A stretch of DNA of 64,000 nucleotides from a virus (IMGVR_UViG_3300033463_000054:30898-94897), one strand, 5' to 3'; positions 19,737 through 42,660 are shown, counted from the first letter of the stretch. Notes: generated by a model from the sequence alone, not told the origin. A program made the numbers and translations.

Positions 19737-20396
19737 TTATACTGGAACGAAATAAGTTTTATAACTATATCCCTGAATAGTTAAATCGCCAGTCTGCTTA
19801 TCACGATAAGTATAGAAATCACGATTCCAGCCACTATAACCTTTCACAAACTCTTCACCGGTCTTAGTGGTTTTAATATTTTTAACATCTTTAATTCTAG
19901 TATTACCATACTTATTAATGGCGTCATTTACAGCATTCTTATATCGATTAAGAGCATGTTCTGCCTGAGCTCTTTCAATATTTTTCATTTGCTGAGCAGC
20001 TCGGTTAACCTGTTCGGAACGTTTAGTTATCTTAGAATCTTCGCCAAAGACTTTCTTAACAACATTAAGATTACGCTCGGATTTCTTAGCAAACCTATCT
20101 GCTGCTTCGCTAAATTCTCTACGTTCTATAGCCGAATTACGATATTCATTAAGAACCTTCTTATCACTCTTATACTGTTTCTTAGTCTCACGATTCATTC
20201 GCTTACCAGTCTCTCCATATCGACCATAATGAATAACACCCTCAGGAGTAAGAGAACCATCTTCATTTTGATACTTACGAATTCCCCACTTCTGACCATC
20301 TACACCATGATGATAAAGTTCATTATCGTACTGTCCGGATCTATTTTGAAGTATCGTAGTCGCTGCACGATACATTTCGAGGCTATATTCTGACAT
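19737..20396 (-). CDS. HHG-motif (DUF7211-like) basic protein
   Basis: ELYHHGVDGQKWGIRKYQNEDGSLT; start moved to the ATG after GGAG. Confidence 0.75.
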   Translation of the reverse strand: MSEYSLEMYRAATTILQNRSGQYDNELYHHGVDGQKWGIRKYQNEDGSLTPEGVIHYGRYGETGKRMNRETKKQYKSDKKVLNEYRNSAIERREFSEAADRFAKKSERNLNVVKKVFGEDSKITKRSEQVNRAAQQMKNIERAQAEHALNRYKNAVNDAINKYGNTRIKDVKNIKTTKTGEEFVKGYSGWNRDFYTYRDKQTGDLTIQGYSYKTYFVPV

Positions 20397-20454
20397 TTTG
20401 TATTCACTCCGATCTTTAAAAAGAAAATAAGCTGTTGAGAGGAAGATGCTATTA

Positions 20455-21006
20455 TCACATCTTCCCCTTAGCCGCTCTACGCATCTGATTGAGTTTAGCA
20501 TAATGATCTGCAGTTTCACCCTTAGACATCTTCTTAGGATTGTTCTTTATACCACAAACCTTGAGTAAAGTCATAAGTTTATTCAAATGCCAATATTGAC
20601 ATTCGAATGGTATTTCAAGAGAGATCATGTAATAGTATATAACCTCGGCGGTTAATACTTCTTTCTTTCCTTTGTTCTTATCCTTACCGTGAAACGTAGT
20701 AGCAGTATGAGAATCTTCCATATATTTAACAATAATCTCCAAAGCAGAGTCGTCTGTTATAATACGTTTCGTCTGCTCTGGAGATAGTATTTCATGATTG
20801 ACTTCATTAAGCGCCATATACGGAATGTAAGATAGGACGTCATCTTGAGTAGTTTTCTCGGTAAGGAATGGTTTCTTGTATACTTCTTCCCATTTTGAAA
20901 CAGTATACAAAGAATGTTCGAGTTCTATGTTTACCTCTTCCCCGTATTCGAACGATTGTGTTTCTTCATTGAATAATTCTATACGAGGAAGAGCGATTTT
21001 GAGCAT
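20455..21006 (-). CDS. Tail assembly chaperone-region protein
   Basis: LEHSLYTVSKWE and WHLNKLMTL; TAATG overlap with the upstream gene. Confidence 0.6.
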   Translation of the reverse strand: MLKIALPRIELFNEETQSFEYGEEVNIELEHSLYTVSKWEEVYKKPFLTEKTTQDDVLSYIPYMALNEVNHEILSPEQTKRIITDDSALEIIVKYMEDSHTATTFHGKDKNKGKKEVLTAEVIYYYMISLEIPFECQYWHLNKLMTLLKVCGIKNNPKKMSKGETADHYAKLNQMRRAAKGKM

Positions 21007-21452
21007 TACTTATTGTCTGCCTGAGGAAGCATAGACTGGCCATTAGCCTGCTGCTTTGCCATCTCGACCTTTGCCTGCTCAGCCAGATCCTTAGGCATGA
21101 TTCCGGTAAGGAATGCTGTCAGCTTATCGGGATCACTTATGAGCTCCATAAAGAGTTCGCTGTATGCGGCGGTGTTCTTGAAGTTCTCAGAGAGCTTCTC
21201 GCCGTTCTTAACCTTAACGAAAGAAATGCCATCAGCACCCTTCTCGCCGTAGCTCATGAGGATGAATTCTTCAACAACATCAACTATACCCTTTACATCC
21301 TGAGAAGTAGCTATCTGACGAAGTCTTCTGTCAAGACCGCCCTTTTCTCTGGTCTGCATGTTGATCAGTTCTGCCTTTGAGAGATTGAAATAAAACTTAT
21401 CGGTAATCTCATTACCTTCGAGATCTGTGAATGTAATTTCCTTGGTAAGCAT
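21006..21452 (-). CDS. Tail assembly chaperone
   Basis: FYFNLSKAEL, SYGEK, AYSELFMEL; lies between major tail and tape measure. Confidence 0.65.
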   Translation of the reverse strand: MLTKEITFTDLEGNEITDKFYFNLSKAELINMQTREKGGLDRRLRQIATSQDVKGIVDVVEEFILMSYGEKGADGISFVKVKNGEKLSENFKNTAAYSELFMELISDPDKLTAFLTGIMPKDLAEQAKVEMAKQQANGQSMLPQADNK

Positions 21453-21543
21453 TGAATTTTTCTCCTTTCGAATTTGGAGACCCCATTTTGAATTTTATGA
21501 GGTCTCCGAAAACCATTGTTAAGTGCTCGTAAAGAGCAATGTC

Positions 21544-22302: not shown

Positions 22303-22383
22303 TGAACTTCATCTCCTTGTTTAAGAGTAACACGGGACGCTATTTGCTTCACGCCCCGTGCTGATTATGCTATTTTGAAGTTA

Positions 22384-24042: not shown

Positions 24043-25926
24043 TCAGCCGTTGTTCTCCTCTTCAGCCTCGGGAGCAGTTGTCTCAGTCTCGAGAACAATT
24101 GCAGAGAAGGGCTTGATAAGAGCGCCGGAGCATCTGGTCTCGATCAGATACTTCTGTGCGTTGTAATCGATATCAAACTGATCATACCACTTGATCTGGC
24201 CACCGCGGTCAGTACCGATGTTATAGTCAGTGAGATTAACGATTATACCATGGAGCTTGTAAGCCTTACCGGTCTTGGTATCAACTCTTACGAGGTTCTC
24301 CATAACGGGAACTGTAACGATGTCGCGAACACGGAGCTTAGTAGCAAGCTTCTCTACGCTATCATAAAGATCTCTACCAGTAGAATCAGTGAGGAGAAGG
24401 AGCTCGGTAAGGGACTGCTCGGTGATGAAGAGAGTAGGATTGCCGGAACCCTTGTAGTCAACTCTTGCTCTTACAGCACCCTCGATGAATGCTCTAGGAG
24501 TCTCATCGGGAAGAGTATACTTGATTGTGAAGAAGTCCTCATCGGTCCAGATAGGTCTGATCTTGAGGGGATCGATCTTGTCATCAGAAGATGTGGGTCT
24601 GCCGTCGCCTACGAGAGCTGCACGAGCGATTTCCTCATCGAGCTGAGTTCTCATTTCCTTGTTAAGGATAGTGATGAGATCGTAGTTACCGCCAGAGATG
24701 TCGATAATGTCATCCTTCTCAACCTTCTGCTTCTTGTAGATGGTTGTAGGCTCTGTGGTTCTCTTGAGGAGGCTGAAGATCTGCTCCTTCTTGAACTTAC
24801 CCTTGATGTAACCTCTAGCCCTTGCGTCATCTGTGGTAAGATCGCCATAAAGGGACTTGGTGCGAGCAAAAGCGGACTTATGAGTTCTGTCCATGAATAC
24901 CTTCACCCAGTCAGTGTTTCTGGTGACAAAGTCAATGTCATCATTAAGTGCCTTGGGATCGGGGAAGAGAAGATCAATGTCCTCTACACCGTGAGCAAGT
25001 ACAGACTCCTTAAGAGAGCCATATTTCTTCATGTCAGCAAGTGCTTCCTTAAACATAGTACCTGCTTCCATCTGCGCATGTGCGATATAATCGCCCTGTG
25101 ATTCGAATACGTTGTGTGTCATCTTAGCATCCTCTCCTTCTTTTTCTTTTACAGCATCTTCTACTGCCACGCCGATAAGAGCATAAACAACATTCTTCTG
25201 CTCATCGGTCATACTATCGAATACGTCCTTAACGGTCTTGCCCTCGCCATCAGCATGGGACATTTCCTCATCGTATTCATCGTAGTTGTTGTAATCGCTG
25301 AAATCCATAGTGGGAACTTCCTCCTGTTCTTCAGACTGATTATGAGCAAGTATCTCTTCGAATGTGCTGGTTATTGCTCCAGTAAACGAATGAGCCATTT
25401 CCTTTACCTCCTCAGAATCGATAATGTTATCATTTTGATTTTCCTCGTAATCGTCATCACTATGATATATTACTTCTTCAAATTCCATACCAGTAGTAAT
25501 AACAGCACCCTCTTCACCATCTGCATGACAAATAACATCATCGATGTATGCTCCGGGATTAGCGCCTGCAAGAACAAGCGAAACTTCACGGATTGTACCG
25601 TGTTTTACATTTCTGCCATTTATGTGCTCGAGGCCGTTCGCATAAATAGACAGACTGGTTATATCGCCATTACGTACTCGTTCCTTAGCATCTCTGCCCT
25701 CGGGACTGTCGTTAAATACGCCATAGCAATATACGCCCTCAGGACGATTCGCTAGAAGAGCATGACCTAGTACATTAGATATTTCACCATGTTTATGGTT
25801 CCACATCAGAGGTACCGTCATACCATTACTGTCGGCAAAAGCATCCTGAAGAATTACTCTTCCATCAGTGCAACGAAGATTATTTCTTGTTGCCCAACCG
25901 CTGAAATCATAACTCACTGTTTTCAC
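24043..25926 (-). CDS. Prohead protease - scaffold - major capsid fusion protein
   Basis: N-terminal HK97-type protease (PLMWNH, SLSI, REVSLV), acidic linker, capsid domain (LDEEIARAALVGDGR, YLIETRCSGAL). Confidence 0.9.
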   Translation of the reverse strand: MKTVSYDFSGWATRNNLRCTDGRVILQDAFADSNGMTVPLMWNHKHGEISNVLGHALLANRPEGVYCYGVFNDSPEGRDAKERVRNGDITSLSIYANGLEHINGRNVKHGTIREVSLVLAGANPGAYIDDVICHADGEEGAVITTGMEFEEVIYHSDDDYEENQNDNIIDSEEVKEMAHSFTGAITSTFEEILAHNQSEEQEEVPTMDFSDYNNYDEYDEEMSHADGEGKTVKDVFDSMTDEQKNVVYALIGVAVEDAVKEKEGEDAKMTHNVFESQGDYIAHAQMEAGTMFKEALADMKKYGSLKESVLAHGVEDIDLLFPDPKALNDDIDFVTRNTDWVKVFMDRTHKSAFARTKSLYGDLTTDDARARGYIKGKFKKEQIFSLLKRTTEPTTIYKKQKVEKDDIIDISGGNYDLITILNKEMRTQLDEEIARAALVGDGRPTSSDDKIDPLKIRPIWTDEDFFTIKYTLPDETPRAFIEGAVRARVDYKGSGNPTLFITEQSLTELLLLTDSTGRDLYDSVEKLATKLRVRDIVTVPVMENLVRVDTKTGKAYKLHGIIVNLTDYNIGTDRGGQIKWYDQFDIDYNAQKYLIETRCSGALIKPFSAIVLETETTAPEAEEENNG

Positions 25927-25934
25927 CTACTTTA

Positions 25935-26344: not shown

Positions 26345-26806
26345 TTATCTCGACATAACAAGGTCAGGACGAGATATAACGATATTAGCATTCTGCACAA
26401 GTATAGCCTGATCGCTTGTGTTTACTATTGACAGCGTTTCACAACAACCTCTCCATATCTGAGCGTTAACTGCACAAGATACGTTAAAGTATTCTTCAAC
26501 AGCTGCCGGAGTAACAATCATCGTGCTTGTCGGTATAACAGATCCGTCTATAGCAAGAGCAAGACTTATCTGTTCAGCAGTACCGCCTGTAGGAACAGCT
26601 ATATTAGCTCTGAACATGCAAAGGTATTCTGCCGACTTAGCACAACATCCACAAGGCATCTGAGGAACATAACCTCTAAGGAGAAAGCTACCACTACCAT
26701 CACGATGTCTCACAAGACCTCTCGTACAAGGAACCGGTGCTTCTGTAAAAACTACAGATCCATTAGAAGCTACAATCTGAACAGCATTTGCCGAATATTC
26801 AGCCAT
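26345..26806 (-). CDS. Cys-rich beta protein, BclA-C/C1q-like (module gene 5)
   Basis: 153 aa; RHRDGSG, CGCC, ANIAVP, NANIVI. Confidence 0.55.
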   Translation of the reverse strand: MAEYSANAVQIVASNGSVVFTEAPVPCTRGLVRHRDGSGSFLLRGYVPQMPCGCCAKSAEYLCMFRANIAVPTGGTAEQISLALAIDGSVIPTSTMIVTPAAVEEYFNVSCAVNAQIWRGCCETLSIVNTSDQAILVQNANIVISRPDLVMSR

Positions 26807-26819
26807 TCAGAACACCTCC

Positions 26820-27596
26820 TCAACCATTACAGCCGCAACCGTAACCGGTGTTATTGGGATATGTAAATATAGGCTGAGATCCATATACAGGCTGAGAAGG
26901 AACAGGACAATTCTTCAGTCTGTTATACAGAGCATCTACCTCATTTGTAAGTCCCTGAGCGATGTATGCATTCTGCTGAGCAATGGTAAGCTGTCTTTCA
27001 AGATCGGCTATCTTCTCGTTCTTAGCATCGATCTTATCATTGCACATCTGATCGAGGATTCTCTGGGTGTTAGCTGCATTATTAGCTATGAGATCACGAA
27101 AACCGTCAGACATAGCGGCTCTGTCTGCACAATTCTCAGTAGCAACAGTATACTTCACGTCAGCTATGTTAGCACGGTTCTCGCAGCAACAATTCTGGAG
27201 ATCCATTGCCAGATTATTCATCTGATTGCTAACGGTAGTCTGAGCTGCAAAAGCCTGCTGCATACCAGACATCTGTCGATTAGCGGCTGCTGACTCGGCG
27301 TTTGCAAAACCACTCGTGATCGCAGAAGAGATACCACCAAGAGTTCCAGCTATTGCAGCCTGATCGAACCCTCTGGACATCTGATCCTGTGTCTGAGCGT
27401 TATAGAAATATGGAGCGCTCGAACCCCAGCCCGAGTTGCCACCAAATCCGCCATTGCCCCAATTGCCGTTCATAGCAAGAAGAAGGAACAATAGAAGATA
27501 TGCTCCATCGCCACCAAAACCGAAACCGTCATTGTTTCGATTATTGCCAACAACCGCTGCCATATCTGCAGCAGACATTCCATTTGTTTCAGTCAT
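26820..27596 (-). CDS. Gly-rich, one-TM, coiled-coil, Cys-cluster protein (module gene 4)
   Basis: GFGFGGDG-hydrophobic stretch-GGFGG, QNCCCEN, C-terminal GCGCNG. Confidence 0.75.
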   Translation of the reverse strand: MTETNGMSAADMAAVVGNNRNNDGFGFGGDGAYLLLFLLLAMNGNWGNGGFGGNSGWGSSAPYFYNAQTQDQMSRGFDQAAIAGTLGGISSAITSGFANAESAAANRQMSGMQQAFAAQTTVSNQMNNLAMDLQNCCCENRANIADVKYTVATENCADRAAMSDGFRDLIANNAANTQRILDQMCNDKIDAKNEKIADLERQLTIAQQNAYIAQGLTNEVDALYNRLKNCPVPSQPVYGSQPIFTYPNNTGYGCGCNG

Positions 27597-27673
27597 AAGG
27601 ATTACCTCCCAAAATAAAATCACACTTTTAATAGTGTTTTCAAGTCTCTTAACAAATGCTGTCCATTTTGATT

Positions 27674-29083
27674 TTAACGATAACGTCCTTTTTTACAAGC
27701 TTCATCAATCACATCATCATACCGACCGCATATAGACTGATAAGCAGTATTAAATTTACATTGTACATCAGGATTATCAAGAGGGATTTTATTAGTCTTG
27801 GCGTAATTTATGATCATCGAATTGAACTCAGTATGCGCAGAGTGTTTTATTTCGTTAACCGTATCATCATCGATCTTACCATCGAGAGATCGTACATACT
27901 TAACGAATGCATCTCGATTAACATTAATAGCATCCATAGTTACGCCATGTATAAGATAAAGATGTTTATCAATCTCGATATTGAATGAATGCTCCATGTC
28001 TGATGATTTCGAGTGACTTGAAGCACGTGATACCGACTGATGCATTTTCTTCTTTTTACCGCTATTCAAAGCCTGTGATAGCAAATACCCACGAGGATTG
28101 GCTATAGCAGATACTGTATTTGAAGTTTTCTGGAGTTCAGTAGGTTCTCCGCTATAATCTATCTTAGGTTGATTAGCCTTATTACGTTGACGTTCTTCTT
28201 CGCTTTGCCGACGTATGTCATCATTGGTCTTCTTTATCATATGATCAGCATAAGCTCTTTGTATTTCTTTTTGATCCTCCTCAGGCAGATCCTTGTACGG
28301 ATTCTCTTTTGTCTTTGGAGCAGGGATCGTTACAGCAGCTTTAATTTGCTTAGGACCCATAGGTTTAGCACCTGTCTGGTTGGTAACTTCCTTATCGAGA
28401 AGATCCTGTTTCTTTTTAGCCTTTACGTCATCTGTTGTCGCTATATTAGGCTTGTTTGAAACATGTTCTTCATTAGGTCCATGACCGGATTCTCTAGCTT
28501 TATCTAACATCGTCTGTTTCTTTGAATTATTATTAATAAAATCTTCTGTAGCAGATGTTATTGATTCATCATAAGCTTTTCTGTTATAACGAGCATCGGA
28601 AGAAGACAGATTATGTATTCGATCAGATGATGAACTAGAGCTATCAGTTATTTGGACGCTATCAGTTTTACCCTCATACATAGGTCGCATTGCATTACCC
28701 ATATCTGGAGTCATAGCGTTACCAAGTGGTGTATTCAGTATTTTTTCATCACCGTTTTGCATTTTCTTCATAACAGTAGCTGCATCATCCGGTCCATGCC
28801 CTTCTCTACGAGCTTTTTCAGCAAGAACTTTAGCTTTCATCTTATTAAGATTAGATTGATTTTCTTCCTGTTTTGCACGTTCCTGACGCTGAGCTTCTCT
28901 TACTGCTTGTCCACGAGCTCGATCTTCTTCGGTGAATTCATCTTCACCAAAGATATGTTCGCCCTTTTTCATACCTTTACGACCATAATGCATTAGTTCG
29001 TCATCATAAATGCCGTATTGTTCAGCACGATTATCGAGAATCTTAATCGCCGCGTGAAACATTTCATTATTCAAAGAGCACAC
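27674..29083 (-). CDS. Low-complexity charged protein with ELMHYG motif
   Basis: 469 aa; ELMHYGRKGMKKG; internal repeat ARREGHGP/ARESGHGP. Confidence 0.75.
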   Translation of the reverse strand: MCSLNNEMFHAAIKILDNRAEQYGIYDDELMHYGRKGMKKGEHIFGEDEFTEEDRARGQAVREAQRQERAKQEENQSNLNKMKAKVLAEKARREGHGPDDAATVMKKMQNGDEKILNTPLGNAMTPDMGNAMRPMYEGKTDSVQITDSSSSSSDRIHNLSSSDARYNRKAYDESITSATEDFINNNSKKQTMLDKARESGHGPNEEHVSNKPNIATTDDVKAKKKQDLLDKEVTNQTGAKPMGPKQIKAAVTIPAPKTKENPYKDLPEEDQKEIQRAYADHMIKKTNDDIRRQSEEERQRNKANQPKIDYSGEPTELQKTSNTVSAIANPRGYLLSQALNSGKKKKMHQSVSRASSHSKSSDMEHSFNIEIDKHLYLIHGVTMDAINVNRDAFVKYVRSLDGKIDDDTVNEIKHSAHTEFNSMIINYAKTNKIPLDNPDVQCKFNTAYQSICGRYDDVIDEACKKGRYR

Positions 29084-29794: not shown

Positions 29795-30175
29795 CTATCG
29801 CTCCTTATAGAAATAATAAAGCGGGACAACATCACCGCTATCCCACGTATCGTAATAATTGCCGTCTATGACTGTTACAGCATGCTCACCTGTACAAAGA
29901 ATATAAATCCCATAAGGATGATCCATACAGAAATCTCGAACGGTGTAACAATCGGGACAAGTGTTATGTAAAGTCTCCATCGTATAACCATGCTTTAAGA
30001 GATATGCTTTCCAAACCCGATTAGACGACGGCATATCGCACATTTCATAACCCTGAATGCAAACGTCAAGATAAACGTCTCTCCATTCACGATCCATAGC
30101 TATCGATATCGCTCTAATAACACAATCAATCACAAGATTGTTGCATGGGTTTGGATTACAATATACAAAACCCAT
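29795..30175 (-). CDS. Putative papain-like/C39-like cysteine peptidase (module gene 1)
   Basis: NPNP...DCVIRA, HAVTV, YYDTWDS give a plausible Cys-His-Asp triad. Confidence 0.5.
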   Translation of the reverse strand: MGFVYCNPNPCNNLVIDCVIRAISIAMDREWRDVYLDVCIQGYEMCDMPSSNRVWKAYLLKHGYTMETLHNTCPDCYTVRDFCMDHPYGIYILCTGEHAVTVIDGNYYDTWDSGDVVPLYYFYKER

Positions 30176-30180
30176 TTCAA

Positions 30181-31269
30181 TCACTTCTTCTTAGCATAAG
30201 ATTCGTAAATTCTATCGAATTCTCTGTTCTGTATCTCACGATACTTATCGGTCAACAATTTACGATTGGCGGCACTGGCAGCTCTAAGCTCCTTGATATG
30301 AGCTCGGAGTTCATCAGATGCACCCTTTTGTCTCGTTCTAGAATCCTCGTTATAAGCCTTGAGTTCCTCGCGAACAGACTTGATACCATCATTAATACTC
30401 TTCGTAGCTTGCTTAACCCCAGCGGCATTAGATGCTCTATAATTAGCAAGCTCTTCAGAATTCTTAGCTTTATAATCTTTAAGTCCGCTTGAAACACCAG
30501 ACTTAGACGTAGCAAGGTCAGCCGATATTTTAGCATTTTCATTGCTCTTATCTGCTCTAATCTTAGCAATGTCTTTCCTAAGCGATTCCTTCTGAGAAGT
30601 ATCTTTGGTTGATTTGATTTGTGCTTGTTTCTGTTCTATCTTTGTCTGAGCATTTTGAGTAGTACGCTCTTTATCGCGCTTAGCCTTTTCGGAAAGTTTC
30701 TCTTTGGTCTTTGTTGCAGTATCAGATGCTCGAGTATTATCGTTCTTAATGTCAGTACGCTTCTTCTCGAGTTCTGATTTAAACTGCTCTTTCTTTCCAG
30801 CCAACTGTTCTTTAAGCGTTTGGATACGAGCATTAATCAACTCTTTGTATTTGCCTCGTTCATCGTTAGCCAAACCTTTAAGCTGAGTAATAGCGTTCTG
30901 AATTTGATCAATCTGTCCCTGAGTAGTATTTTTAATTGACTCTTGTTCAGTCTGCTTTTCTTTCTTAATGTTCTCCTGAACTACAGAGTAAATCTCTTTA
31001 CCCTCGTCAGAAAGCTGTGATTTTGAACGAGTTCTACCTTTGAGCTGTTTAGTTTTCTCGTAATACTCATGGGCCTTCTGGTAATTGTAGTAAGGGCTTG
31101 AATACGCGTTCTTAGTCGGTCCATATCCAGCTCCACCTTGAGTACCATCGCTAGCAGCGTGTATGAGATAACCTTCTCGATTAACATCCATACCTCTAGC
31201 GTTAAGCCACTGTTTGGAGAATTCCATCAGAGCTGCATTATTTACGCCATTTTGAATTTTACGTACCAT
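30181..31269 (-). CDS. Basic coiled-coil protein
   Basis: YLIHAA and YYNYQKAHEYYEKTKQLKGR, then a Lys-rich coiled coil. Confidence 0.7.
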   Translation of the reverse strand: MVRKIQNGVNNAALMEFSKQWLNARGMDVNREGYLIHAASDGTQGGAGYGPTKNAYSSPYYNYQKAHEYYEKTKQLKGRTRSKSQLSDEGKEIYSVVQENIKKEKQTEQESIKNTTQGQIDQIQNAITQLKGLANDERGKYKELINARIQTLKEQLAGKKEQFKSELEKKRTDIKNDNTRASDTATKTKEKLSEKAKRDKERTTQNAQTKIEQKQAQIKSTKDTSQKESLRKDIAKIRADKSNENAKISADLATSKSGVSSGLKDYKAKNSEELANYRASNAAGVKQATKSINDGIKSVREELKAYNEDSRTRQKGASDELRAHIKELRAASAANRKLLTDKYREIQNREFDRIYESYAKKK

Positions 31270-32605
31270 CAAGCTCCGCCTCCAGACTATCAAGCTCGGC
31301 TTCCTGCTTATCTATCTCGGCTATTGCCTTATCAAGTTCTTCATCAGTCATCTGTGAAGGATCCATGTTAGCATAATCTGGCTGACTTGTTTCGGCACCA
31401 GCAACATTTGTCATGTCATACGGCATGTTCGAGTTAACAAGCTGATCAGCCTTAGGATCGCTAGAAGGTTTCATACCCAGTGCCTGACGTACCTCATTAG
31501 AAGTAAGTATCTCGTTTCTAGTAAGCTTATCAGCAAGGTCTGCAAGCTGAGACATAGGCACGAGACTAAACCTATCGTGGAAGTATCTTATAGCCTGCCT
31601 CTGTGTACGAGCGGTTTTAGATAAGAATTTACGTTCCATCTCTTCAGTTATAGCCTGCACAATAACCTCAATTACACGCGTCATATAATTCAGCATTTCA
31701 GTCTCACTAGCTGTACCATTCAGTATTTCAGGTGTCATGCCAAGCTGACCATAAAGCATATTAGTGAGGTATTCGATCTGAGCTTGAAGATTATTCTCAA
31801 GAGGTCTACCTAAAGTAGTAATCTTCTCAGTACCATCAGTATAAGCAATGCCATACTTAGACTCTGTAAGCTGCCTTTCAATCTCAGTTCTACGCTTTTC
31901 AGCCTGCTCTCTTCTAGCTTCTGACTTGATAATGTAAGGAAGCTGAATGATCATCTGAAGTTTACCATTATTCTCTTCATCGACAGCATCGAGCAAAGAT
32001 AGTTTCTTGATCAGTCGTTGTAAAGTTGAGTTTGGAGCATTCATGATGGGATAAAAAGGGTTCTCGACCAAAGCACAACACCGTTTGGAAAAAGGAATAT
32101 CTTGTTTTTCCATAGTATCTTCATTGTATACTCGAACCTTCACCCATGTCGGATGCCACTCAACAACCTGCCCAACTTTCATCTCAAGAACTTTATAACT
32201 ATCAGTTAGCTCCGGATCAGTGTCGGTACGAAAGGGCACGATCGCTATATGGCCCTGATCGATCAAGGTAAATGCAGCATCGCGCATAAACTCTCTACCT
32301 GTCTGATCTCTGTTCGCTTCGGTATTAAGACAATAATTCAACGTACTGTCTATATTAGACTCATAATTACCGTTTTCATCGACTTTAACATGCCGGACAT
32401 CTACCCTAGAACAATCAACAGCTATTTTATTATAAATAGCTGCTATAATCGATCGTTCTGCACCCCAGTTCATACGCGGTCTATCTGGTTTAAACGAAGA
32501 ACTCCGCTCAATAACCGAAACCGATGTAGTTGCAGGAGGTGTGGGATCACGATTCATGAAGGCATTCCAAGCATGTTTCAGCCTGTTAGTTATTGTTTCT
32601 GCCAT
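31259..32605 (-). CDS. Portal protein
   Basis: RLKHAWNAF, EANRDQTGR, IIQLPY, YGIAYTDG, NEILTSNEVR. Confidence 0.9.
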   Translation of the reverse strand: MAETITNRLKHAWNAFMNRDPTPPATTSVSVIERSSSFKPDRPRMNWGAERSIIAAIYNKIAVDCSRVDVRHVKVDENGNYESNIDSTLNYCLNTEANRDQTGREFMRDAAFTLIDQGHIAIVPFRTDTDPELTDSYKVLEMKVGQVVEWHPTWVKVRVYNEDTMEKQDIPFSKRCCALVENPFYPIMNAPNSTLQRLIKKLSLLDAVDEENNGKLQMIIQLPYIIKSEARREQAEKRRTEIERQLTESKYGIAYTDGTEKITTLGRPLENNLQAQIEYLTNMLYGQLGMTPEILNGTASETEMLNYMTRVIEVIVQAITEEMERKFLSKTARTQRQAIRYFHDRFSLVPMSQLADLADKLTRNEILTSNEVRQALGMKPSSDPKADQLVNSNMPYDMTNVAGAETSQPDYANMDPSQMTDEELDKAIAEIDKQEAELDSLEAELDGT

Positions 32606-32621: not shown

Positions 32622-33350
32622 CTATCTTCGTTTAATCAAATCTTTTACACTACCGCCTTCGGAGTAAACCGGGTAAAGTGCTTTAGAAGCAAACCTTCCG
32701 GCAGTCTTTCCGAGTGTAGCTCCCTTAGCGGCCGCAGCAGTACCACCAAAAGGTTCGAACTTGGTCTTAACACCCATCTTCTTCGCAACTTCTTTATACA
32801 TCTTATGAGCATTGTAACCAGCAACCGCACCAGCATCACGCGCAAGTTTGGTAAACTCTCGTTCGAATTCCTTCTCGGACGCAGCAGCTTTTCCAAGTTT
32901 TGCTTTAGTCTTATTGTAGGTATCTGTAATAAATCCTTCAGACAGATCCGAAACTGTTCGAGCCACAGTTTTACTTATTCTCGACATGTCAGAAGGACTA
33001 GACAAATATCGATAAAGATCTACGCCCTTATCTGACAGAATATTCTGCACTTCATCAGCCGCAGATCGAATCAAATCTGTAGGATCTTTAGCAAAGTCAG
33101 TAGCTTTCTTAGCGGTATTAAGCACTTTACTAGCAACATCAGCTCTCTTAGCCTTATCTATCATATTTACGGCTTTATTACCATAACGTGTATAGAAATC
33201 ACTAAATTTCTTAACTGCTCTTGCTGCTCCGTAACCATAATGCTTTCGTCCAGCGTCGGTAAGGGATCCATCTTCATTTTGATACCTACGTACTCCCCAT
33301 TTCTGGTTTAATACACCGTGATGATACAGTTCTGTACAATTCTCATACAT
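32622..33350 (-). CDS. HHG-motif (DUF7211-like) protein
   Basis: ELYHHGVLNQKWGVRRYQNEDGSLT. Confidence 0.75.
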   Translation of the reverse strand: MYENCTELYHHGVLNQKWGVRRYQNEDGSLTDAGRKHYGYGAARAVKKFSDFYTRYGNKAVNMIDKAKRADVASKVLNTAKKATDFAKDPTDLIRSAADEVQNILSDKGVDLYRYLSSPSDMSRISKTVARTVSDLSEGFITDTYNKTKAKLGKAAASEKEFEREFTKLARDAGAVAGYNAHKMYKEVAKKMGVKTKFEPFGGTAAAAKGATLGKTAGRFASKALYPVYSEGGSVKDLIKRR

Positions 33351-33366: not shown

Positions 33367-33942
33367 TCAACTCTTAAGACCCTGAATAGCAGCAATCAAA
33401 GCTACAGTCGACGCACCTACAGCAGCAACGCTACCACACATATCGATTATTTCTTTTGCCTTAGCTGCTCCAGTCTGTCTCTGAGGATAACGTTTGTTGA
33501 TCCAATCAACATAAGCCGATTCGGTCTGGAAACGCTTATTAAGCTTCTCAAGTTCTTCAATAGTGTATTTTGAAAAATCGAAATCACCGTAACCATAAAC
33601 AGGAGTATCGGTATACTTCTTAGGGATAGCTTTGCTCAAAGAACCAAACCAATTCTTTGAAGCGTTGTAATATTGTCCTTTAGCAGACAGCTTATCATTA
33701 CCATTATTGCCGCCCTTCTGCTTTCCGCCACCCTGCTGATCGCCACCGTCCTTCTTCTTACCATCGCCCTGATTATTTCCACCAGAGGAAGGTTTACCCC
33801 AAGGACGTTTCTTGGCAACTTCATCGCCCTGAAAAGGTCTCTTTCCGGAGCCTCTTCTATAACGACCTGAATTCCAGTTTCCGATATGCATAAGATAATC
33901 TTCGGGTTCTTCTGTTACCGGGCATTTGTACTCGTTATACAT
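33367..33942 (-). CDS. HxG-motif basic protein
   Basis: YLMHIGNWNSGRYRRGSG; hydrophobic C-terminus. Confidence 0.7.
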   Translation of the reverse strand: MYNEYKCPVTEEPEDYLMHIGNWNSGRYRRGSGKRPFQGDEVAKKRPWGKPSSGGNNQGDGKKKDGGDQQGGGKQKGGNNGNDKLSAKGQYYNASKNWFGSLSKAIPKKYTDTPVYGYGDFDFSKYTIEELEKLNKRFQTESAYVDWINKRYPQRQTGAAKAKEIIDMCGSVAAVGASTVALIAAIQGLKS

Positions 33943-33961: not shown

Positions 33962-35134
33962 CTATTTAAATTTTCGCTTAATGTTTCTAGCTTTATCCTT
34001 AACGAAAGTTTTAGCGTTATCGGCACTCTTTGCGTAATGACCAATGAGACGTTTGCCATACACAGCAGCGTTGTCTCTAGCAGCCTTATTAACTTCGTCG
34101 TTGGTAAGCCTTCGAGTATCGATCTTTCTAAGTTCATTATCGGTGTTAAACATTATCTGAGGAGCATAAGTATGGAACGTCGAATATTTAAGGTCATTTA
34201 CGTCAAGTATCGATCCATAACCCTTTTTGATCAGATTGTCGTAAACTTTCTTACCACTATCATAGTAGAAATTATATTTAGTTCCTGTAATCTTAGAAGT
34301 AGCTTCGCCCCAGTCAGTCAAGCCAACATTATAGAACTCATATCCATAATCACGCATCTTACGTTCGTAATTAATGCGATCTTTAATGGATCTGTTCTTG
34401 TTCTTATCCGCTTCTTTAAGTTCTTCTCGCATCTTTGAAAAACTTTCAGGATGCCATTCGGAATGGAAATCAACTTTATCCCAGAAATCCTTCTGAAATT
34501 CCTTATCTCCTCTATAAGCTTCCATGAATGCCTTAGCAGCGGTCTTCTTGCCAGCACCTTTGATGTCCTTTTCAGCAACGTAATGCGTCTGATAAGAAGG
34601 AAGATCTTCACCAGCTCTGCTATTTTGAACTTTGGTATAGATACCCTTATAGAAGTCTGCGTCGTGTTTATTAATAGACATCCACTTACTTTGATGCTGA
34701 GGTCCATTAGGATTCTTACCAATGTTATAAATGTCAGTTCCTTTCGGAATCACGTAATCAGCATCGAGATCCATAAAACTCTTTCGATTTCCATGTTTAT
34801 CGACTTGACCTCGCTGCATTTCATCCATAATGTTTTTACCCATATCAGTAGCGGCAATAACATCGTGAACACTCTGATCCAAAGCATTGTATTGGCTCGG
34901 ATCTTTGTCAAGAACGCCCTTAACAATCATAGCTGCTCCGACAGTAGCCAAAGCGCCACTAACAAAAACAGCCCCAGTAGCTATACGCTTTACACGTTCT
35001 TTTTCGCTTCCAGCACCAGCTTCGTCTTGATAAGGACGTTCTCCGCTTCCCCAAGGATATCGGCCTGAATGACGAGGAGTACCGTAATGCATTAACTCAT
35101 TTTGATAAAAACTTGGGATCATTACATAATCCAA
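33962..35134 (-). CDS. HYG-motif protein with a TM-like segment and an uncharacterised globular domain
   Basis: ELMHYGTPRHSGRYPWGSG, nearly identical to the polymerase N-terminal motif. Confidence 0.75.
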   Translation of the reverse strand: MDYVMIPSFYQNELMHYGTPRHSGRYPWGSGERPYQDEAGAGSEKERVKRIATGAVFVSGALATVGAAMIVKGVLDKDPSQYNALDQSVHDVIAATDMGKNIMDEMQRGQVDKHGNRKSFMDLDADYVIPKGTDIYNIGKNPNGPQHQSKWMSINKHDADFYKGIYTKVQNSRAGEDLPSYQTHYVAEKDIKGAGKKTAAKAFMEAYRGDKEFQKDFWDKVDFHSEWHPESFSKMREELKEADKNKNRSIKDRINYERKMRDYGYEFYNVGLTDWGEATSKITGTKYNFYYDSGKKVYDNLIKKGYGSILDVNDLKYSTFHTYAPQIMFNTDNELRKIDTRRLTNDEVNKAARDNAAVYGKRLIGHYAKSADNAKTFVKDKARNIKRKFK

Positions 35135-37005: not shown

Positions 37006-37437
37006 TTACAGTGCAATAGTCTTGTTCGGTTCATTCTTGCTAATGAAGATTACGCTCTTACCGTTATCGTTAATGATGTACTCGGTATAGTGAGTATTCC
37101 TAAGTATGTCCTTGATCTGCTTATCTTCGTTGGCAGTAATACGCCCATCGCCAGCAAGGAATTTTGAGATACTCGATGCAAGAGCATTAAGTATGTCGTC
37201 GTCTCTTCTCTGCTGGTTCTGTCTACGCATCTGAGAATTCTTAAGACGCTCATCAGCGAGTGCCTGTCTGTTATCAGCGTCAGCCTTCTTCAGCTTAGTC
37301 TGATTGTTCTTATACATTGTGTCGTAAAGTGAGGCACCAGCGTTCCTAAGACCTTCGCCAGCACTCTTCAGCCAACCTCTATGCTGAAGCTCATCATCAC
37401 GATCATGGTCATACGAATCGTATTCATAGATAGCCAT
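37006..37437 (-). CDS. Hypothetical protein with ELQH motif
   Basis: 143 aa; strong RBS; DDELQHRG. Confidence 0.7.
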   Translation of the reverse strand: MAIYEYDSYDHDRDDELQHRGWLKSAGEGLRNAGASLYDTMYKNNQTKLKKADADNRQALADERLKNSQMRRQNQQRRDDDILNALASSISKFLAGDGRITANEDKQIKDILRNTHYTEYIINDNGKSVIFISKNEPNKTIAL

Positions 37438-37458: not shown

Positions 37459-38697
37459 TTACTTCTTCTTAGGTATTTTGACAGTAGCATTATTGTTGTA
37501 TATACTATCCACCAAATTACGTCTATTGAGATCGTTCTTAAACTTAGCAAGTTCGGAAGTCTTGAGCCACTTAACGTCGTAACCAAGATTACTAGTATTG
37601 ACGTCATACTTCTTAAGGTTCTTAGCTCCCCAAACGTCAGGTTCATCAAGACCTGTCTGTTTCTTACCTATATGCGATCCAACGCCAAAGCCAAGACCGC
37701 CAAGAATACCAGATCCAGCAACACCAGCCGCCGCAACTGCAGGATTTGCAAGACCAAGACCACCTATAAGACCGAGACTAGCCGAAGTCGCAGCTCCACC
37801 CGAACCAAGAATAGCACCCATACGGAATGCAGGATTCTTCATAAGTTCAGCTCTAGCATCTTTCTTGCCCTGTTTCTCCAGATCACGACGTCTCTTATCA
37901 GCATCACCTACTGCAGCAAGCTTAGTATTACCCTTTTCGTCAACATCAACATAATTCAAGAGATAACGCTTCCTACCTTCAGGAGTGAGGGTACCATCTT
38001 CGTTCTGATAGCGCCTAATACCCCACTTCATGCCGAATATGCCATGATGATAGAGTTCGTCATACATGGGTTCTGATTTTGAACGTTCAAGAGTGTCGAA
38101 GTAGGAGTGTTTTAACATTTTCGAAGCCTTTACTTTGTTCTTGTAATCGTCGGCTCTCTTTTTACGGTTCTCGTCATTCAGATAGTCATCACTAAATGAA
38201 CCCTTCGGACGAGCTCCTGCGTTTGCCATATGTTTATGGTGATAACGACTTGTATCCTGTATCATAGCTTTAGCAGTATCCGCTTTAACCATCTTACCGT
38301 CTTTGTATAGAATGTAATGATTACCAACAGGACTTTTCTTCATAGTAATTTCGCCCTGAGGAGTTACAGTATCCAAACCGTTTGATGTAAAGTTAAATGG
38401 AACTGAATTACCATTGGTGTGATAGGTGTTGTTGTATAGTCTAAGTAAAGCATTAAACGTTGAAACATCGTTGCTATCCAAATAATAGTCGTTGTATTTG
38501 TTCTCTATCTCATTTGAATCACGCAGCCATTGTATTCGATCTGAATCGTTCGAATCCGAAGATTTACCAGTCAATAATGTCTGATTATTCTTTGCGTTCT
38601 TCGCGTTTCTTTTGTTTATAGCATGATAGAGCTCTTTTGAAAGAATAGCTGTAGTCAACGAGGATTCCTCCTTTCGTTTTTGATCACTGAATGCCAC
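37459..38697 (-). CDS. Two-part HHG-motif protein
   Basis: ELYHAI near the N-terminus; internal ELYHHGIFGMKWGIRRYQNEDG; Gly/Ala hydrophobic hairpin. Confidence 0.75.
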   Translation of the reverse strand: MAFSDQKRKEESSLTTAILSKELYHAINKRNAKNAKNNQTLLTGKSSDSNDSDRIQWLRDSNEIENKYNDYYLDSNDVSTFNALLRLYNNTYHTNGNSVPFNFTSNGLDTVTPQGEITMKKSPVGNHYILYKDGKMVKADTAKAMIQDTSRYHHKHMANAGARPKGSFSDDYLNDENRKKRADDYKNKVKASKMLKHSYFDTLERSKSEPMYDELYHHGIFGMKWGIRRYQNEDGTLTPEGRKRYLLNYVDVDEKGNTKLAAVGDADKRRRDLEKQGKKDARAELMKNPAFRMGAILGSGGAATSASLGLIGGLGLANPAVAAAGVAGSGILGGLGFGVGSHIGKKQTGLDEPDVWGAKNLKKYDVNTSNLGYDVKWLKTSELAKFKNDLNRRNLVDSIYNNNATVKIPKKK

Positions 38698-39183: not shown

Positions 39184-39210
39184 CAGAAATATCCGCCGGA
39201 GAAAAGTGGA

Positions 39211-39219
39211 AGACCGGCG
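39211..39219 (-). other. Candidate cohesive end (cos) CGCCGGTCT
   Basis: GC-rich 9-mer in the non-coding gap upstream of the packaging genes; resembles CGCCGNNCT-type 3' overhangs that I recall for phages with this gene order. Confidence 0.5.
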
Positions 39220-39471
39220 CGATATGGGAGGGCATGGATTTTCGAAGGACCCCTCCCCCTCTCACAAAAGAGTTGGAGAAGTCAAATCTACGAAATTTTT
39301 AACGAAGTTTTTACAATTTTGGAGAGATTTTGTAGGTTCTTCGAAATTGTTACAGAGTTCCGTAAACGAAATCGAGCGCTCGAATCGAAGCGTTTAGAAA
39401 TCGAAGCAAGAGACTTCAAAATTGTTACCAAAATCTTCACAAAAAATTGTAATAGAAATTCGTCTGTAAGG

Positions 39472-39729
39472 TCATACCTCAAACTCATCTTCGAAATTGC
39501 GGACGACCTTTGCATAAATATTCAAAGGATCAGCCTTCACTAATTCGTCGATGCCTCTTTCAAGTTCGGAATTCATTTCTTTTTCGGTCATACGATCGCT
39601 AACGCTAGTAAGTCTATCCAAAATTTGGCAGCTTCCATAGCCTTTGTCACAATCGAAACGATACCATTCGTTGAAGTTTTCGAAAGGATCGTATGGGTTA
39701 TCAACAGTTGTAATAGCTACTCTTCGCAT
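39472..39729 (-). CDS. Small acidic protein downstream of the polymerase gene
   Basis: TTVDNPYDPF...EWYRFD...KGY; RBS AAGGAG. Confidence 0.75.
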   Translation of the reverse strand: MRRVAITTVDNPYDPFENFNEWYRFDCDKGYGSCQILDRLTSVSDRMTEKEMNSELERGIDELVKADPLNIYAKVVRNFEDEFEV

Positions 39730-39744
39730 ACGAAATCTCCTTTC

Positions 39745-42660
39745 TTAATCCTTCTTGTTAGGATTCATATAATTTATTACGGTAGATCTTGATACGCCAA
39801 TAGCATCTGCTATCTCAGTATTACTGTATCCAGAATTCTTCATGGCTTCTATTTTATTAATTTTAGCCTGTGTGAGAGCAGGTCTGTCCTTAGGCATAGC
39901 GTACTTTCGAAGTTGATCTTGATCACACTTCTGGAAGATGTCAGACTGTTTGCTACTATGAATTGCTCCAGCCTGAATAGCTTCCCATTCTCTAGGCGTA
40001 ATGTCTATCTTTATAGATTTAGCACCAACTTCTTCACGCGCTTTAGTCATCTCTTGTTGCGCGACCTTCTTACGATACTTATTAAGTTCAGTCTTACCAT
40101 AATCGGGATGATCGTCCTTATAATATTGCATACGCTCATCTATTCTAGCATCAGCTCTAAGTTGGGCTTGTCTCTCACGAGGTCTGTTCTTATTAACCAT
40201 AAGAAGTTTCTCGTCAAGTGACTTAACTTCAGGAGCATACTTAGCAGCCGCCTCTTTACTATAAGTCATAGTCGGTGTATTAACAGCTGTCTTTCTCGCA
40301 TAATTAGCCAACGATTTAAGTTCACTAGCATAACCAGCGTATGCTTCTTCTTGCACAGTACCTGAAGAAAGAGTATAAGGATCTTTAGTAATAGACATCC
40401 TATCAACCTTGGTAAAACGTTCAACAGTCTTACCTTTCTTATCCTTATAAAAACGTTCGCTATCAGGAGCTGTTCTATAGGTTATTTCGCCGGTTTCTTT
40501 ATCTATTATACCAGAACCCTTCCTAAGAGGTATTCTAGCTTCAGAACCTGCCATAGTAAGAAGTGTTGATGCACCGGTACTATAACGCCCTGTTTCAGGA
40601 TCAATGTGTCCTTTCCAGCGCTTAGTAAGAGCATCAATGTTATTGTCTCTCTTAGAAGCTTCATAATCTAGATGATGCTTAGCAGAGTCAATGACAACCA
40701 TAGAATGTTTTGTAGCACATGCAAGTTCCTGATCAGAAGCGCCCTTAAGAGTCATGTCCATAATAAGATTTGAAACCATACCCATTTGCTTCTGCTGATC
40801 AGCACCCTTCTTCATGATCTTATTTGAATAACCAGTAGGAGATTTAGGGTCAGGAATACCGGGATATGCCATCTTAGTATCAAAGTCCTTAAGACCATCA
40901 AGAGGTTCTCTATTAGTTACAGACGTAGCTTTATTCTTTCCAGTAGGTAAAACAAGAACTGTATCGCCATCGAAATCGGCACCAGAAAGTCTTTCTGCTA
41001 CATGTGCATTTATACCGACTGCATCCAAAGCATTAGCTCCAAGAACTCTCTTACCTTCAGCATTCTTGTTATTAACTGTCAATATAGGTATCTGTCCAGT
41101 GTTCTCGTGAGGAAATCTTACAAGAGCAACTTTCTCACCATCTTTATAGTTCGGAGCATAAACTTCAGTATCCTTAATATCGGTAAGAGGCAAAATAACC
41201 TGATACTTCTGTCGAGGTAATGCTGCTGCAGACAATGTCGCCGCATTCGTATCACAGTCTCCAGCAAAATCCATTAAATACTTCTTTCGAAGAGAAGGAT
41301 TCTCAAGAGCCATTATTTCGTCAAGTTCTTCTTTTCTGTCAGCTATAGACAATTTAAGCTGTGTCTGAATAAACTCTGGTTTCTGCTTAGCCAAGAACTG
41401 AGAAGGTAAAGTATCAGACCATTCATTCCAGTCGCCTTCTTCTCTTGTTTTATTTATAGGACTAAGCTTCATCTTTCCTGTTTTAGGATCCTTATATTCA
41501 TATTGTCCACCAGCAGTAACTTTAACTACTTCACCGGTTTCAGGATCGCGATATTCTTCTCTTTCTCCAGTCTTAATAAGCGCACCAAAAGGATTCTTAG
41601 GATCCTTCTCGGCAGGCTTAAGAACACCTTTGCCGTTCTCGTCAGGCATTAAAGAAGTTCCGCGTTTCTTGTTGGAGTTAATAAGAATATCATAACCTTC
41701 AGGAATGTCATCAGAATATAATGCCATTCCCTTAATATAGGCCTTACCGTCAACAAGAGTTCTTATCTGAGCATAATGAGAATTACCGAGAGAAAGATCT
41801 TCAACACCACGTCTTATCTCGATAACACCGTCTTTGTCCTTACCACCATCTTCAGCATATCTAACATAAATACGCTTACTATCAAGTGACGAAGGAGGCT
41901 GAGTTTTAACATATGTCGCTCCACCATCGTGAGAATGATAATCATCGATGGTATGAATTTCTTCATGATAGAGATCTTTCTGTTGTGTTCCCGGAGGTGC
42001 AATTACTCTTATTGTTGTAGACTTACCCGGATTCGTAGGCTGGTTAACTCTTCGGTTAGATACAAAATATCCATCAGCTTGGCAAACAATAAGAGCCTCA
42101 TCAAGCATGTTTCTAGAACATCCAAGACTAAGCTCTGCTGATTTACCTACATCGATAATACCCTTTTCGTCAACCTTCTTCTTAAGAACTTCAGCGGTTG
42201 CTTGAGCACCAGTCTGTTTAGCAATTTCATTAGCACGAATATAATTACCAACAGTCGTGTCAGGAATACCAAGTTTTCTACTTATCTCAAGGTTAGAATA
42301 TCCCTTCTCGTGAAGATTCTTACAATGAGTAATAAGTTCGGCCCTTCTTTGATTACTAGCGATAGCTTCATAAACTCGAAACTCCTTGATCTCCATTTCA
42401 AGTTCTTCGGATATCTGTTTAGCAGTCATTCCCTGTTTCTTAAGTTCATTTACACGACTAAGAAAGTCACCACTATGTTGATAAGGTGCATCACCAGAAC
42501 CCCAAGGATATCTACCAGAATGTCTCTTAGTTCCGTAATGCATTAGAACATCATCATTAGAATCATTAGAATAATTAGAATCAACAGATTCGGTGCTATT
42601 TGAAATATCAACAGGTTCATCAAGAAGACTATTGACATGTTCTAAAATATCCATAATCAT
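39745..42660 (-). CDS. Putative single-subunit two-barrel (DPBB) RNA polymerase with N- and C-terminal HTH domains
   Basis: RFP motif followed by LSGADFDGD (ADFDGD at 40963-40980); upstream YIKGM; three HTH-like segments. Confidence 0.7.
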   Translation of the reverse strand: MIMDILEHVNSLLDEPVDISNSTESVDSNYSNDSNDDVLMHYGTKRHSGRYPWGSGDAPYQHSGDFLSRVNELKKQGMTAKQISEELEMEIKEFRVYEAIASNQRRAELITHCKNLHEKGYSNLEISRKLGIPDTTVGNYIRANEIAKQTGAQATAEVLKKKVDEKGIIDVGKSAELSLGCSRNMLDEALIVCQADGYFVSNRRVNQPTNPGKSTTIRVIAPPGTQQKDLYHEEIHTIDDYHSHDGGATYVKTQPPSSLDSKRIYVRYAEDGGKDKDGVIEIRRGVEDLSLGNSHYAQIRTLVDGKAYIKGMALYSDDIPEGYDILINSNKKRGTSLMPDENGKGVLKPAEKDPKNPFGALIKTGEREEYRDPETGEVVKVTAGGQYEYKDPKTGKMKLSPINKTREEGDWNEWSDTLPSQFLAKQKPEFIQTQLKLSIADRKEELDEIMALENPSLRKKYLMDFAGDCDTNAATLSAAALPRQKYQVILPLTDIKDTEVYAPNYKDGEKVALVRFPHENTGQIPILTVNNKNAEGKRVLGANALDAVGINAHVAERLSGADFDGDTVLVLPTGKNKATSVTNREPLDGLKDFDTKMAYPGIPDPKSPTGYSNKIMKKGADQQKQMGMVSNLIMDMTLKGASDQELACATKHSMVVIDSAKHHLDYEASKRDNNIDALTKRWKGHIDPETGRYSTGASTLLTMAGSEARIPLRKGSGIIDKETGEITYRTAPDSERFYKDKKGKTVERFTKVDRMSITKDPYTLSSGTVQEEAYAGYASELKSLANYARKTAVNTPTMTYSKEAAAKYAPEVKSLDEKLLMVNKNRPRERQAQLRADARIDERMQYYKDDHPDYGKTELNKYRKKVAQQEMTKAREEVGAKSIKIDITPREWEAIQAGAIHSSKQSDIFQKCDQDQLRKYAMPKDRPALTQAKINKIEAMKNSGYSNTEIADAIGVSRSTVINYMNPNKKD

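Follow-up and report, generated by a model that had tools for sequence, protein, structure and literature searches.

A hydrophobic-x-His motif links a protease–spacer–capsid fusion to putative virion cargo proteins, including an RNA polymerase, in a 1706/Mudcat-like gut phage

The window analysed here comprises 64,000 nucleotides (nt) and is the final 64 kb of a single 94.9-kb contig (IMGVR_UViG_3300033463_000054, positions 30898-94897) representing a gut phage of about 95 kb. A gene on its minus strand encodes a head protease, an acidic scaffold-like spacer and a capsid protein as a single polypeptide, in which every spacer histidine lies in the same short motif, with I, L or M two positions before it and a small residue directly after it. 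A related signature, acidic-L-x-H, opens a conserved module of about 35 amino acids (aa), referred to below as the tag, in nine further open reading frames (ORFs) of the window and in one just outside it, mostly near the N-terminus; the carriers include a YonO-like RNA polymerase. On balance, the best explanation is a head protease that cuts after histidine together with head-internal proteins that are recruited by the tag, processed and ejected, a scheme in which we infer cleavage, the loading mechanism and ejection from sequence.

The fusion gene (ORF 24043-25926, minus strand, 627 aa) joins three parts, listed here with a slash marking the position after the histidine and with histidines numbered in the ORF, a notation kept throughout:

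25525..25926, minus strand: prohead serine protease domain (Peptidase_S78), aa 1-134, ending in the invariant VICH134/A
24991..25524, minus strand: acidic scaffold-like spacer, aa 135-312, with seven further [LIM]-x-H/[AGSN] sites (His155, 179, 195, 224, 271, 283 and 312)
24043..24990, minus strand: HK97-fold major capsid protein domain, aa 313-627, with the predicted mature N-terminus GVEDIDLL

The N-terminal domain is assigned to the Peptidase S78 family by a profile match above the cut-off (PF04586, aa 24-129, 28.4 bits against a cut-off of 21), and the fusion matched phrog_3270, annotated as 'head maturation protease', with E=7e-194. Residues H52, S113 and H131 (numbered in a 624-aa database call) were invariant across 59 aligned sequences, the contexts of the invariant His and Ser being VLGH and EVSLV; by analogy rather than by superposition, these may correspond to His65 and Ser114 of HK97 gp4. 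In an AlphaFold2 model, aa 1-130 had a predicted local distance difference test score (pLDDT) of 80-93 and the last protease strand ended at the first motif histidine (134), while the spacer was disordered save for a few helices (pLDDT mostly <50). The C-terminal domain has the HK97 fold in this model; a Foldseek search with it returned encapsulins, HK97 (2gp1, 1ohg), gene transfer agent and actinophage capsids at a probability of 1.00, the top structural matches being family-1 encapsulins (Thermotoga maritima), above phage capsids. A phmmer search of the fusion against PDB sequences gave no match, so that there is no solved capsid of a close relative to show the mature N-terminus.

The eight spacer sites reported in the initial annotation were all present: VICH/A, VIYH/S, EMAH/S and ILAH/N at aa 134, 155, 179 and 195, followed by EMSH/A, KMTH/N, YIAH/A and VLAH/G at aa 224, 271, 283 and 312. 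With the histidine taken as P1, all eight have I, L or M at -2 (P3) and A, G, S or N at +1 (P1'), and the residues at -4 to -6 are mostly acidic. When the 189-aa spacer (12.7% I/L/M, 27% D/E) was shuffled, none of 300,000 shuffles reached eight, and an analytic estimate of the chance for the -2 rule by itself gives about 7e-8; genome-wide, 120 of 496 histidines (24%) have I, L or M at -2. The distances between sites, and hence the sizes of the predicted spacer fragments, are 12-47 aa.

The same rule was followed in relatives. Among 120 database homologues of 44-100% identity, 739 of the 778 spacer histidines (95%) had I, L, M or V at -2, P1' was A, G, S or N in about 90% of the sites and P6 was D or E in 68%; for histidines outside the spacer the -2 figure was 46%, a value inflated by conserved domain positions. 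A more distant set of 150 cluster representatives (<=50% identity), obtained by a profile search of 1.8 billion proteins, obeyed the rule at 881 of 1,034 spacer histidines (85%). Other amino acids each stayed at 9%-25%, which makes the spacer rule specific to histidine. The pattern was also recognised by eye in orf10 of Lactococcus phage 1706, the major capsid protein of Faecalibacterium phage FP_oengus, gp12 of Mudcat (Arthrobacter) and gp8 of HotFries (Streptomyces). In the alignment of 59 sequences, the histidine ending the protease domain and the His-Gly before the capsid N-arm were invariant, the last spacer site being kept as [LI]-x-H/G in homologues, and the internal copies varied in number and place. 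An aliphatic P3, free P2, fixed P1 and small P1', with invariant copies exactly at the two domain boundaries and a variable number between them, look like maturation cleavage sites. The spacer motif is a deeply conserved, histidine-specific signature, in line with the earlier proposal, and on these sequence features the spacer histidines are very probably protease sites.

A comparable motif near the start of the portal protein was also considered:

31259..32605, minus strand: portal protein (PF04860)

Its N-terminus reads NRLKH11/AWNAF (motif at aa 9-11, window 32573-32581), and the histidine is shared with 1706 (RLLH/S) and ReqiPepy6 (KLMH/A). The motif was rejected as a conserved site, being replaced in FP_oengus (RLKR/A) and Mudcat (KFKN/A); it may be an optional trimming site.

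Outside the fusion, the acidic-L-x-H signature was found in the following genes:

39745..42660, minus strand: YonO/RdRP-like RNA polymerase with helix-turn-helix domains; polymerase-type tag DDVLMH41/YGTKRHSGRYPWGSG at nt 42448-42555
37459..38697, minus strand: two-unit tagged protein; N-terminal ELYH25/A, spacer-type MLKH197/S and internal DUF7211 tag DELYH217/HGIFGMKWGIRRYQNEDG
37006..37437, minus strand: small basic protein; variant tag DDELQH19/RGWLKSAGEG, mature part with an isoelectric point (pI) of 9.7, leader with a net charge of -6
33962..35134, minus strand: 390-aa protein; polymerase-type tag QNELMH16/YGTPRHSGRYPWGSG, aa 11-49 matching the N-terminus of phrog_4291
33367..33942, minus strand: 191-aa basic protein with hydrophobic C-terminus; degenerate polymerase-type tag EDYLMH19/IGNWNSGRYRRGSG
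32622..33350, minus strand: 242-aa basic helical protein (phrog_32444); DUF7211 tag CTELYH/HGVLNQKWGVRRYQNEDGSLT, the histidine being aa 10 from the likely start
30181..31293, minus strand: 370-aa Lys/Glu-rich repetitive protein adjoining the portal gene (phrog_11413, not DUF7211); GYLIH45/A
27674..29083, minus strand: 469-aa protein; NEMFH10/A, then degenerate DUF7211 tag DDELMH32/YGRKGMKKG
19737..20396, minus strand: basic protein of the tail-chaperone region (phrog_32444); DUF7211 tag YDNELYH/HGVDGQKWGIRKYQNEDG
contig 26720-27355, about 3.5-4.2 kb before the start of the window, minus strand: tenth tagged gene, 211 aa; polymerase-type MTDSELYH/YGTPRHSGRYPWGSG

Every motif listed for these ORFs in the initial annotation was found there, and tags were confirmed in ORFs 19737, 27674, 32622, 33367, 33962, 37006, 37459 and 39745. 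The proposed number of about ten carriers corresponds to nine in the window, to which the gene outside it, located beyond the tail genes and away from the head module, is added as a tenth. Some details needed revision. The longest-ORF starts assumed for ORFs 19737 and 32622 were over-extended, the likely starts being 20396 and 33350, and database gene call P0123 (242 aa) agrees with the second. In ORF 37459, where the reported sites are all present, the main tag is the internal one at His217. ORF 30181 does carry the YLIH motif, which is kept in Mudcat gp11 at the same position (FLEH/Y) with a shared YY..QKAHEYYE, and belongs to a separate family, not to DUF7211. ORF 27674 has additional [LIM]-x-H/small sites at His365, 379 and 414.

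Four tag types could be distinguished. The DUF7211 tag proper, E-L-Y-H/H-G-x-x-G-[QM]-K-W-G-V-R-R-Y-Q-N-E-D-G-S-L-T, occurs in ORFs 19737, 32622 and 37459 and in degenerate form in 27674; the polymerase-type tag, L-x-H/Y-G-T-[KP]-R-H-S-G-R-Y-P-W-G-S-G, in the polymerase, ORF 33962 and the gene outside the window and in degenerate form in 33367; the third type, E-L-Q-H/R-G-W, in ORF 37006; and the fourth, Y-L-I-H/A, in ORF 30181. A search with Pfam DUF7211 (PF23847, cut-off 27 bits) gave 29.7 bits for ORF 37459, which passes, 22.7 for 19737 and 16.6 for 27674, which fall below, and no match for 32622, 33367, 33962, 37006 or 39745. Close relatives of 32622 carry DUF7211 in precomputed annotation, and an ESM Atlas search with ORF 33962 matched other DUF7211 clusters only; by sequence, the polymerase-type tag is a variant outside the DUF7211 model. 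The parts of the tagged proteins after the histidine are basic (pI 8.5-9.9) and the 20 residues before it are mostly net acidic. An AlphaFold2 model of the 242-aa protein (ORF 32622) was helical and of low confidence (mean pLDDT 59, tag region about 72).

Conservation was assessed in 166 tags from database relatives and 231 tags from 77 IMG/VR loci. P3, which had been left free in the search pattern, was Leu in 91-95%, P4 was Glu, P5 was D, N or S, P1' was H, Y, F or W, and P2' was always Gly. Scored with a matrix derived from the spacer sites (P9-P4 and P2), the tags had a median of +1.8 against -4.7 for other [ILMV]xH motifs in the same loci (Mann-Whitney p=1e-76), a difference driven mostly by acidity and taken against a control set that includes non-coding frames. 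More than 2,500 relatives of the ORF 32622 tag exist, and in relatives the tag is joined to GNAT acetyltransferase, CW_7 and Gln_amidase domains; as judged from these domain combinations the tag is portable, as had been proposed.

Two tags were present in 47 of 120 relatives. Internal tags typically have a spacer-type [ILV]xH/S site 5-20 residues upstream, and the rule was obeyed by 36 of 55 histidines in the 32 residues before them versus 0 of 16 in a downstream control window. ORF 37459 shows this arrangement (M-L-K-H197/S, 20 residues, E-L-Y-H217/H-G) and is a probable polyprotein. The tandem arrangement fits polyproteins built of units of short acidic leader, tag and basic domain that would be parted at the spacer-type sites. 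In Rhodococcus phage ReqiPepy6 (GU580941.1, 10681-19935), eight tagged genes (gp013 and gp015-gp021) flank the large terminase gene (TerL) and precede the portal gene; they share D-x-F-L-A-H/Y-G-V-K-G-M-K-W-G, located 10-15 aa from the start in seven of them and internally (His343) in gp013. In 57 of 79 IMG/VR DUF7211 loci the fusion gene lay downstream on the same strand.

The largest tagged protein, the 971-aa RNA polymerase encoded by ORF 39745, matched phrog_4291 (E=0) and contains the catalytic motif ADFDGD at aa 561-566 (nt 40963-40977). Pfam RdRP gave no match at E<=0.01; a link of the polymerase of this lineage to RdRP by HHpred is reported in a preprint (bioRxiv 10.1101/842583). From the DxDGD loop and family-level sequence similarity it is a two-barrel (YonO/RdRP-like) enzyme. 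The tblastn alignments to 250 phage records all began at residue 39, the L of LMH and thus P3 of the tag, and each of the relatives that were inspected (FP_oengus, 1706, MT835495, Mudcat and HotFries) has the tag. In HotFries (MH155869.1, 40574-40664) the conserved tag EEALAH/YGVLRRSGRYPWGSG precedes the annotated start of the polymerase (gp56, 40664), so that the deposited gene model is probably N-terminally truncated.

Evidence for a place in the virion comes from Lactococcus phage 1706 (EU081845), the depositors of which call orf7 and orf75 'structural protein'. The product of orf7 (462 aa) has tags at His34 and His183 and further L-x-H/S sites; orf75, which RefSeq later renamed, encodes the 1,029-aa polymerase homologue with a tag at His25. 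These labels reportedly go back to sodium dodecyl sulfate polyacrylamide gel electrophoresis and liquid chromatography-tandem mass spectrometry by Garneau and co-workers in 2008. The polymerase gene is located directly upstream of the packaging and head genes, as it is in a circular sense in 1706 and Mudcat, which fits late expression. The tagged proteins are likely virion components; for the polymerase, the evidence of packaging is indirect and consists of the GenBank label of the 1706 homologue.

These findings can be combined in the following scheme. The fusion would be made as a polyprotein of protease, acidic spacer and capsid domain, and in the procapsid the S78 protease would cut after the histidine in [DE]-x-[VE]-[LIM]-x-H/[AGSN]. 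The first cut would free the protease and the last would yield a capsid protein starting GVEDIDLL, while the intermediate cuts would reduce the spacer to peptides of 12-47 aa able to exit the shell. The P9-P1 signature would likewise open the module, either DUF7211 (HG..G.KWG.RRYQNEDGSLT) or polymerase-type (YGT.RHSGRYPWGSG), on small basic helical proteins, tandem 'polyprotein' versions and the YonO-like polymerase. Because the signature of the capsid spacer opens the tag on about ten other proteins, it is probable that these are taken up into the head and trimmed within it; the same protease would process them at the spacer-type L-x-H/S sites between units and perhaps also at the tag histidine. 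The cargo would finally be ejected together with the DNA, and the polymerase would carry out early transcription.

Several observations, in addition to the reservations on the matrix score given above, weigh against parts of this scheme. The leaders range from 3 aa (MAT-ELYH) to about 40 aa and are unconserved, only acidic, and the conserved part of the tag extends from P5 to about 30 aa beyond the histidine, so that a cut would leave the module of about 35 aa attached to the mature protein. P1' is H, Y, F or W, followed by the invariant Gly, in the tags as against A, G, S or N in the spacer, which means that the protease may cut the tag poorly or not at all. Two further 'structural proteins' of 1706, orf62 and orf71, proved to be untagged, so the tag is not needed for that label. 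Tag and fusion may occur together through common descent alone. None of the lineages sampled had a spacer P1 other than His, and our literature search found no mature N-terminus, cleavage assay or packaging assay for any member. When aa 1-123 of the fusion (the protease domain) were modelled in complex with aa 1-45 of a tagged protein, without controls, the score was 0.02 against a mark of 0.32, which speaks neither for nor against the scheme. The initial interpretation is thus upheld in part: spacer protease sites are very likely and packaged cargo is likely, and the motif on the cargo does share L-x-H and the acidic P9-P4 context with the spacer, differing from it at P1'; the acidic leader as a removable targeting peptide of the T4 type is not supported. 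The tag histidine itself could equally be cut, perhaps slowly, or only bound, and the case for the module rather than the leader as the loading element is likewise finely balanced.

In the main rival explanation, the tag serves as a docking module that stays uncleaved and tethers cargo in the procapsid, only the spacer-type L-x-H/small sites being cut. L-x-H-aromatic-Gly would then be a pseudo-substrate of the protease, which is present at one copy per capsid subunit, or a hairpin (..RRYQNEDGSLT..) would bind to the protease, to the spacer or to the inside of the shell. The bulky P1' and invariant P2' Gly, both unlike the spacer sites, the conservation beyond the histidine and the very short leaders all favour such docking, as do the spacer-type sites that shortly precede internal tags and the fact that in some proteins (for example, P0131) the tag is no more than about 40 aa away from the C-terminus. 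However, the strict P5-P1 sequence ([DNS]-E-L-x-H) is common to three otherwise different tag types, as expected of a protease site; we regard uncleaved docking as possible but rather doubtful.

Two other explanations are less likely than docking. DUF7211 could have another role (DNA condensation, interaction with cell wall or membrane at entry, or some other assembly function), its L-x-H being unrelated to the head protease. The motif is three residues only, the genome-wide frequency given above is considerable, one tagged gene lies among the tail genes and one outside the head module, and some relatives have CW_7 cell-wall-binding domains; yet the extended acidic context of the tags matches the spacer sites, genes with a tag are grouped with the fusion gene, E-L-x-H-x-G is retained by three distinct tag types that otherwise differ, and the tagged 1706 proteins are labelled structural, so that coincidence appears improbable. 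Least likely, and very improbable, is a spacer in which L-x-H serves as a non-proteolytic scaffold element (metal or pH sensing, shell contacts) with maturation cuts made elsewhere or by a host or second phage protease: the 27% D/E would let the histidines pair with carboxylates and a 129-aa ORF containing Cys and His (phrog_3754) lies in the head module, but this ORF had no Pfam match, and an aliphatic -2, small +1 and free -1 position with invariant boundary copies and variable internal ones is the signature of a protease site and not of a metal site.

A bolder version of the preferred scheme can be offered tentatively. DUF7211 and its polymerase-type variant might form a programmable cargo-loading system for HK97-fold heads, the module docking any protein in the procapsid and a rare serine protease with His at P1 freeing the units of polyproteins, by which thousands of phages of Actinobacteria and Firmicutes inject a toolkit of their own choice; the docked module might mimic a protease substrate, bind the shell in the manner of an encapsulin peptide, or do both, which is a similarly tentative proposal. 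If so, the injected toolkit would include acetyltransferases and amidase-type toxins besides the RNA polymerase that the phage itself encodes.

The spacer pattern has parallels in the related assemblin-type proteases, which read a hydrophobic P3 and a specific P1: T4 gp21 cuts at [LI]-x-E/ and herpesvirus assemblin at [VL]-x-A/S. The motif of the phiKZ-like giant phages, including SPN3US, is [ASG]-x-E. In T4, the capsid-targeting sequence of IPI-III and Alt is likewise a portable signal with a short shared motif, an aliphatic P3 and a fixed P1, and the head protease trims scaffold, capsid protein and ejected internal proteins, the same scheme that is proposed here from sequence. The present system differs from T4 in that P1 is His, not Glu, and the protease is of the S78 (HK97) type and fused to the capsid protein; moreover, the conserved element comes after the putative cut and so would be retained by the cargo, the leaders are unconserved, and P1' differs between spacer and cargo. 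To our knowledge, a prohead protease with His at P1 would be unusual for this protease clan. HK97 gp4 with the gp5 delta domain, and herpesvirus assemblin-scaffold fusions, resemble the fusion in their S78/assemblin-like fold and an attached scaffold-like segment that is digested after assembly, whereas here all three parts are in one polypeptide with multiple, regularly placed His sites; we know of no cargo system for HK97. Encapsulins offer a parallel to the proposed loading, since short portable peptides dock diverse cargo inside an HK97-fold shell; unlike the tags, these peptides are usually C-terminal and have no protease link. The invariant D-G-S-L-T of the tag may resemble the G-S-L core of encapsulin peptides.

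Non-canonical RNA polymerases are packaged for early transcription by N4 and crAss-like phages, and these virion enzymes, like YonO of SPbeta, have a catalytic loop of the DxDGD type, as does the polymerase described here. In reports on phiKZ-like phages and SPN3US, the prohead protease gp245 is described as processing many head proteins that travel with the DNA, and a virion RNA polymerase is carried (PMC5694885, PMC7411985, PMC10052503). The phages of that group are myoviruses with genomes of about 240 kb, a protease of the T4 type and a multisubunit virion polymerase, in contrast to siphoviruses of 44-95 kb with a single-subunit YonO-like polymerase and a His motif. The principle of one head protease, a shared site and tagged internal proteins is already known from T4 and phiKZ-like phages; new would be the His specificity, the fusion architecture, the tag after the site and a single-subunit polymerase as cargo. 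A literature search whose coverage did not extend to the 1706 and ReqiPepy6 proteomic studies found no paper on DUF7211, the His motif or virion packaging of the polymerase.

The motif predicts exact mature N-termini for hundreds of cultured phages, among them SEA-PHAGES Arthrobacter, Gordonia and Streptomyces clusters, lactococcal 1706-like phages and Faecalibacterium FP_oengus; the cuts before the capsid domain would fall at LKH/AITNI in 1706 and at LAH/AQEYG in Mudcat. If the scheme is true, it would give a function to DUF7211, a Pfam family that has thousands of members and no assigned role, and the tag would mark accessory proteins riding in the virion, enzyme- and toxin-like ones included. 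The signature YonO-like polymerase of the lineage would be a virion enzyme for early transcription, and a portable loading tag would be a practical handle to package proteins into phages of Gram-positive bacteria.

The window holds the head and putative early-delivery module of a siphophage of the 1706/Mudcat supercluster. Homologues of the fusion were found in 244 phage records and those of the polymerase in 250, the two sets being largely the same and including Arthrobacter, Gordonia, Streptomyces, Microbacterium, Curtobacterium and Rhodococcus phages, Lactococcus 1706-like phages and Faecalibacterium FP_oengus. The supercluster spanning Actinobacteria and Firmicutes and its signature polymerase have been described (bioRxiv 10.1101/842583); the accessible part of that preprint mentions neither the His motif or N-terminal tag nor virion packaging of the polymerase. 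Nearly all genes of the window are on the minus strand. From high to low coordinates they begin with a PD-(D/E)XK exonuclease-like gene, the polymerase and a small phrog_4259 protein of unknown function, continue with two tagged ORFs, TerL, three tagged ORFs, the portal gene and the Lys/Glu-rich repetitive protein, and end with several unknowns, one tagged ORF, the fusion, connector and tail genes (one tagged ORF inside) and the tape measure gene.

Some untagged genes of this region have further features. The 129-aa ORF with the phrog_3754 assignment (29795-30184, minus strand) has spaced Cys, His and Asp residues that recall a small papain-like peptidase, and may be a candidate second protease. 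Two untagged unknowns of the head module at 26345-27623 (minus strand) encode a 267-aa protein (phrog_16490), which has Cys pairs (CCC, CGC) and an N-terminal half rich in Gly and Asn, and a Cys-rich protein of 153 aa (phrog_20016). The tape measure protein (10871-19333, minus strand) is 2,820 aa long and contains a very long central run of hydrophobic segments resembling membrane spans.

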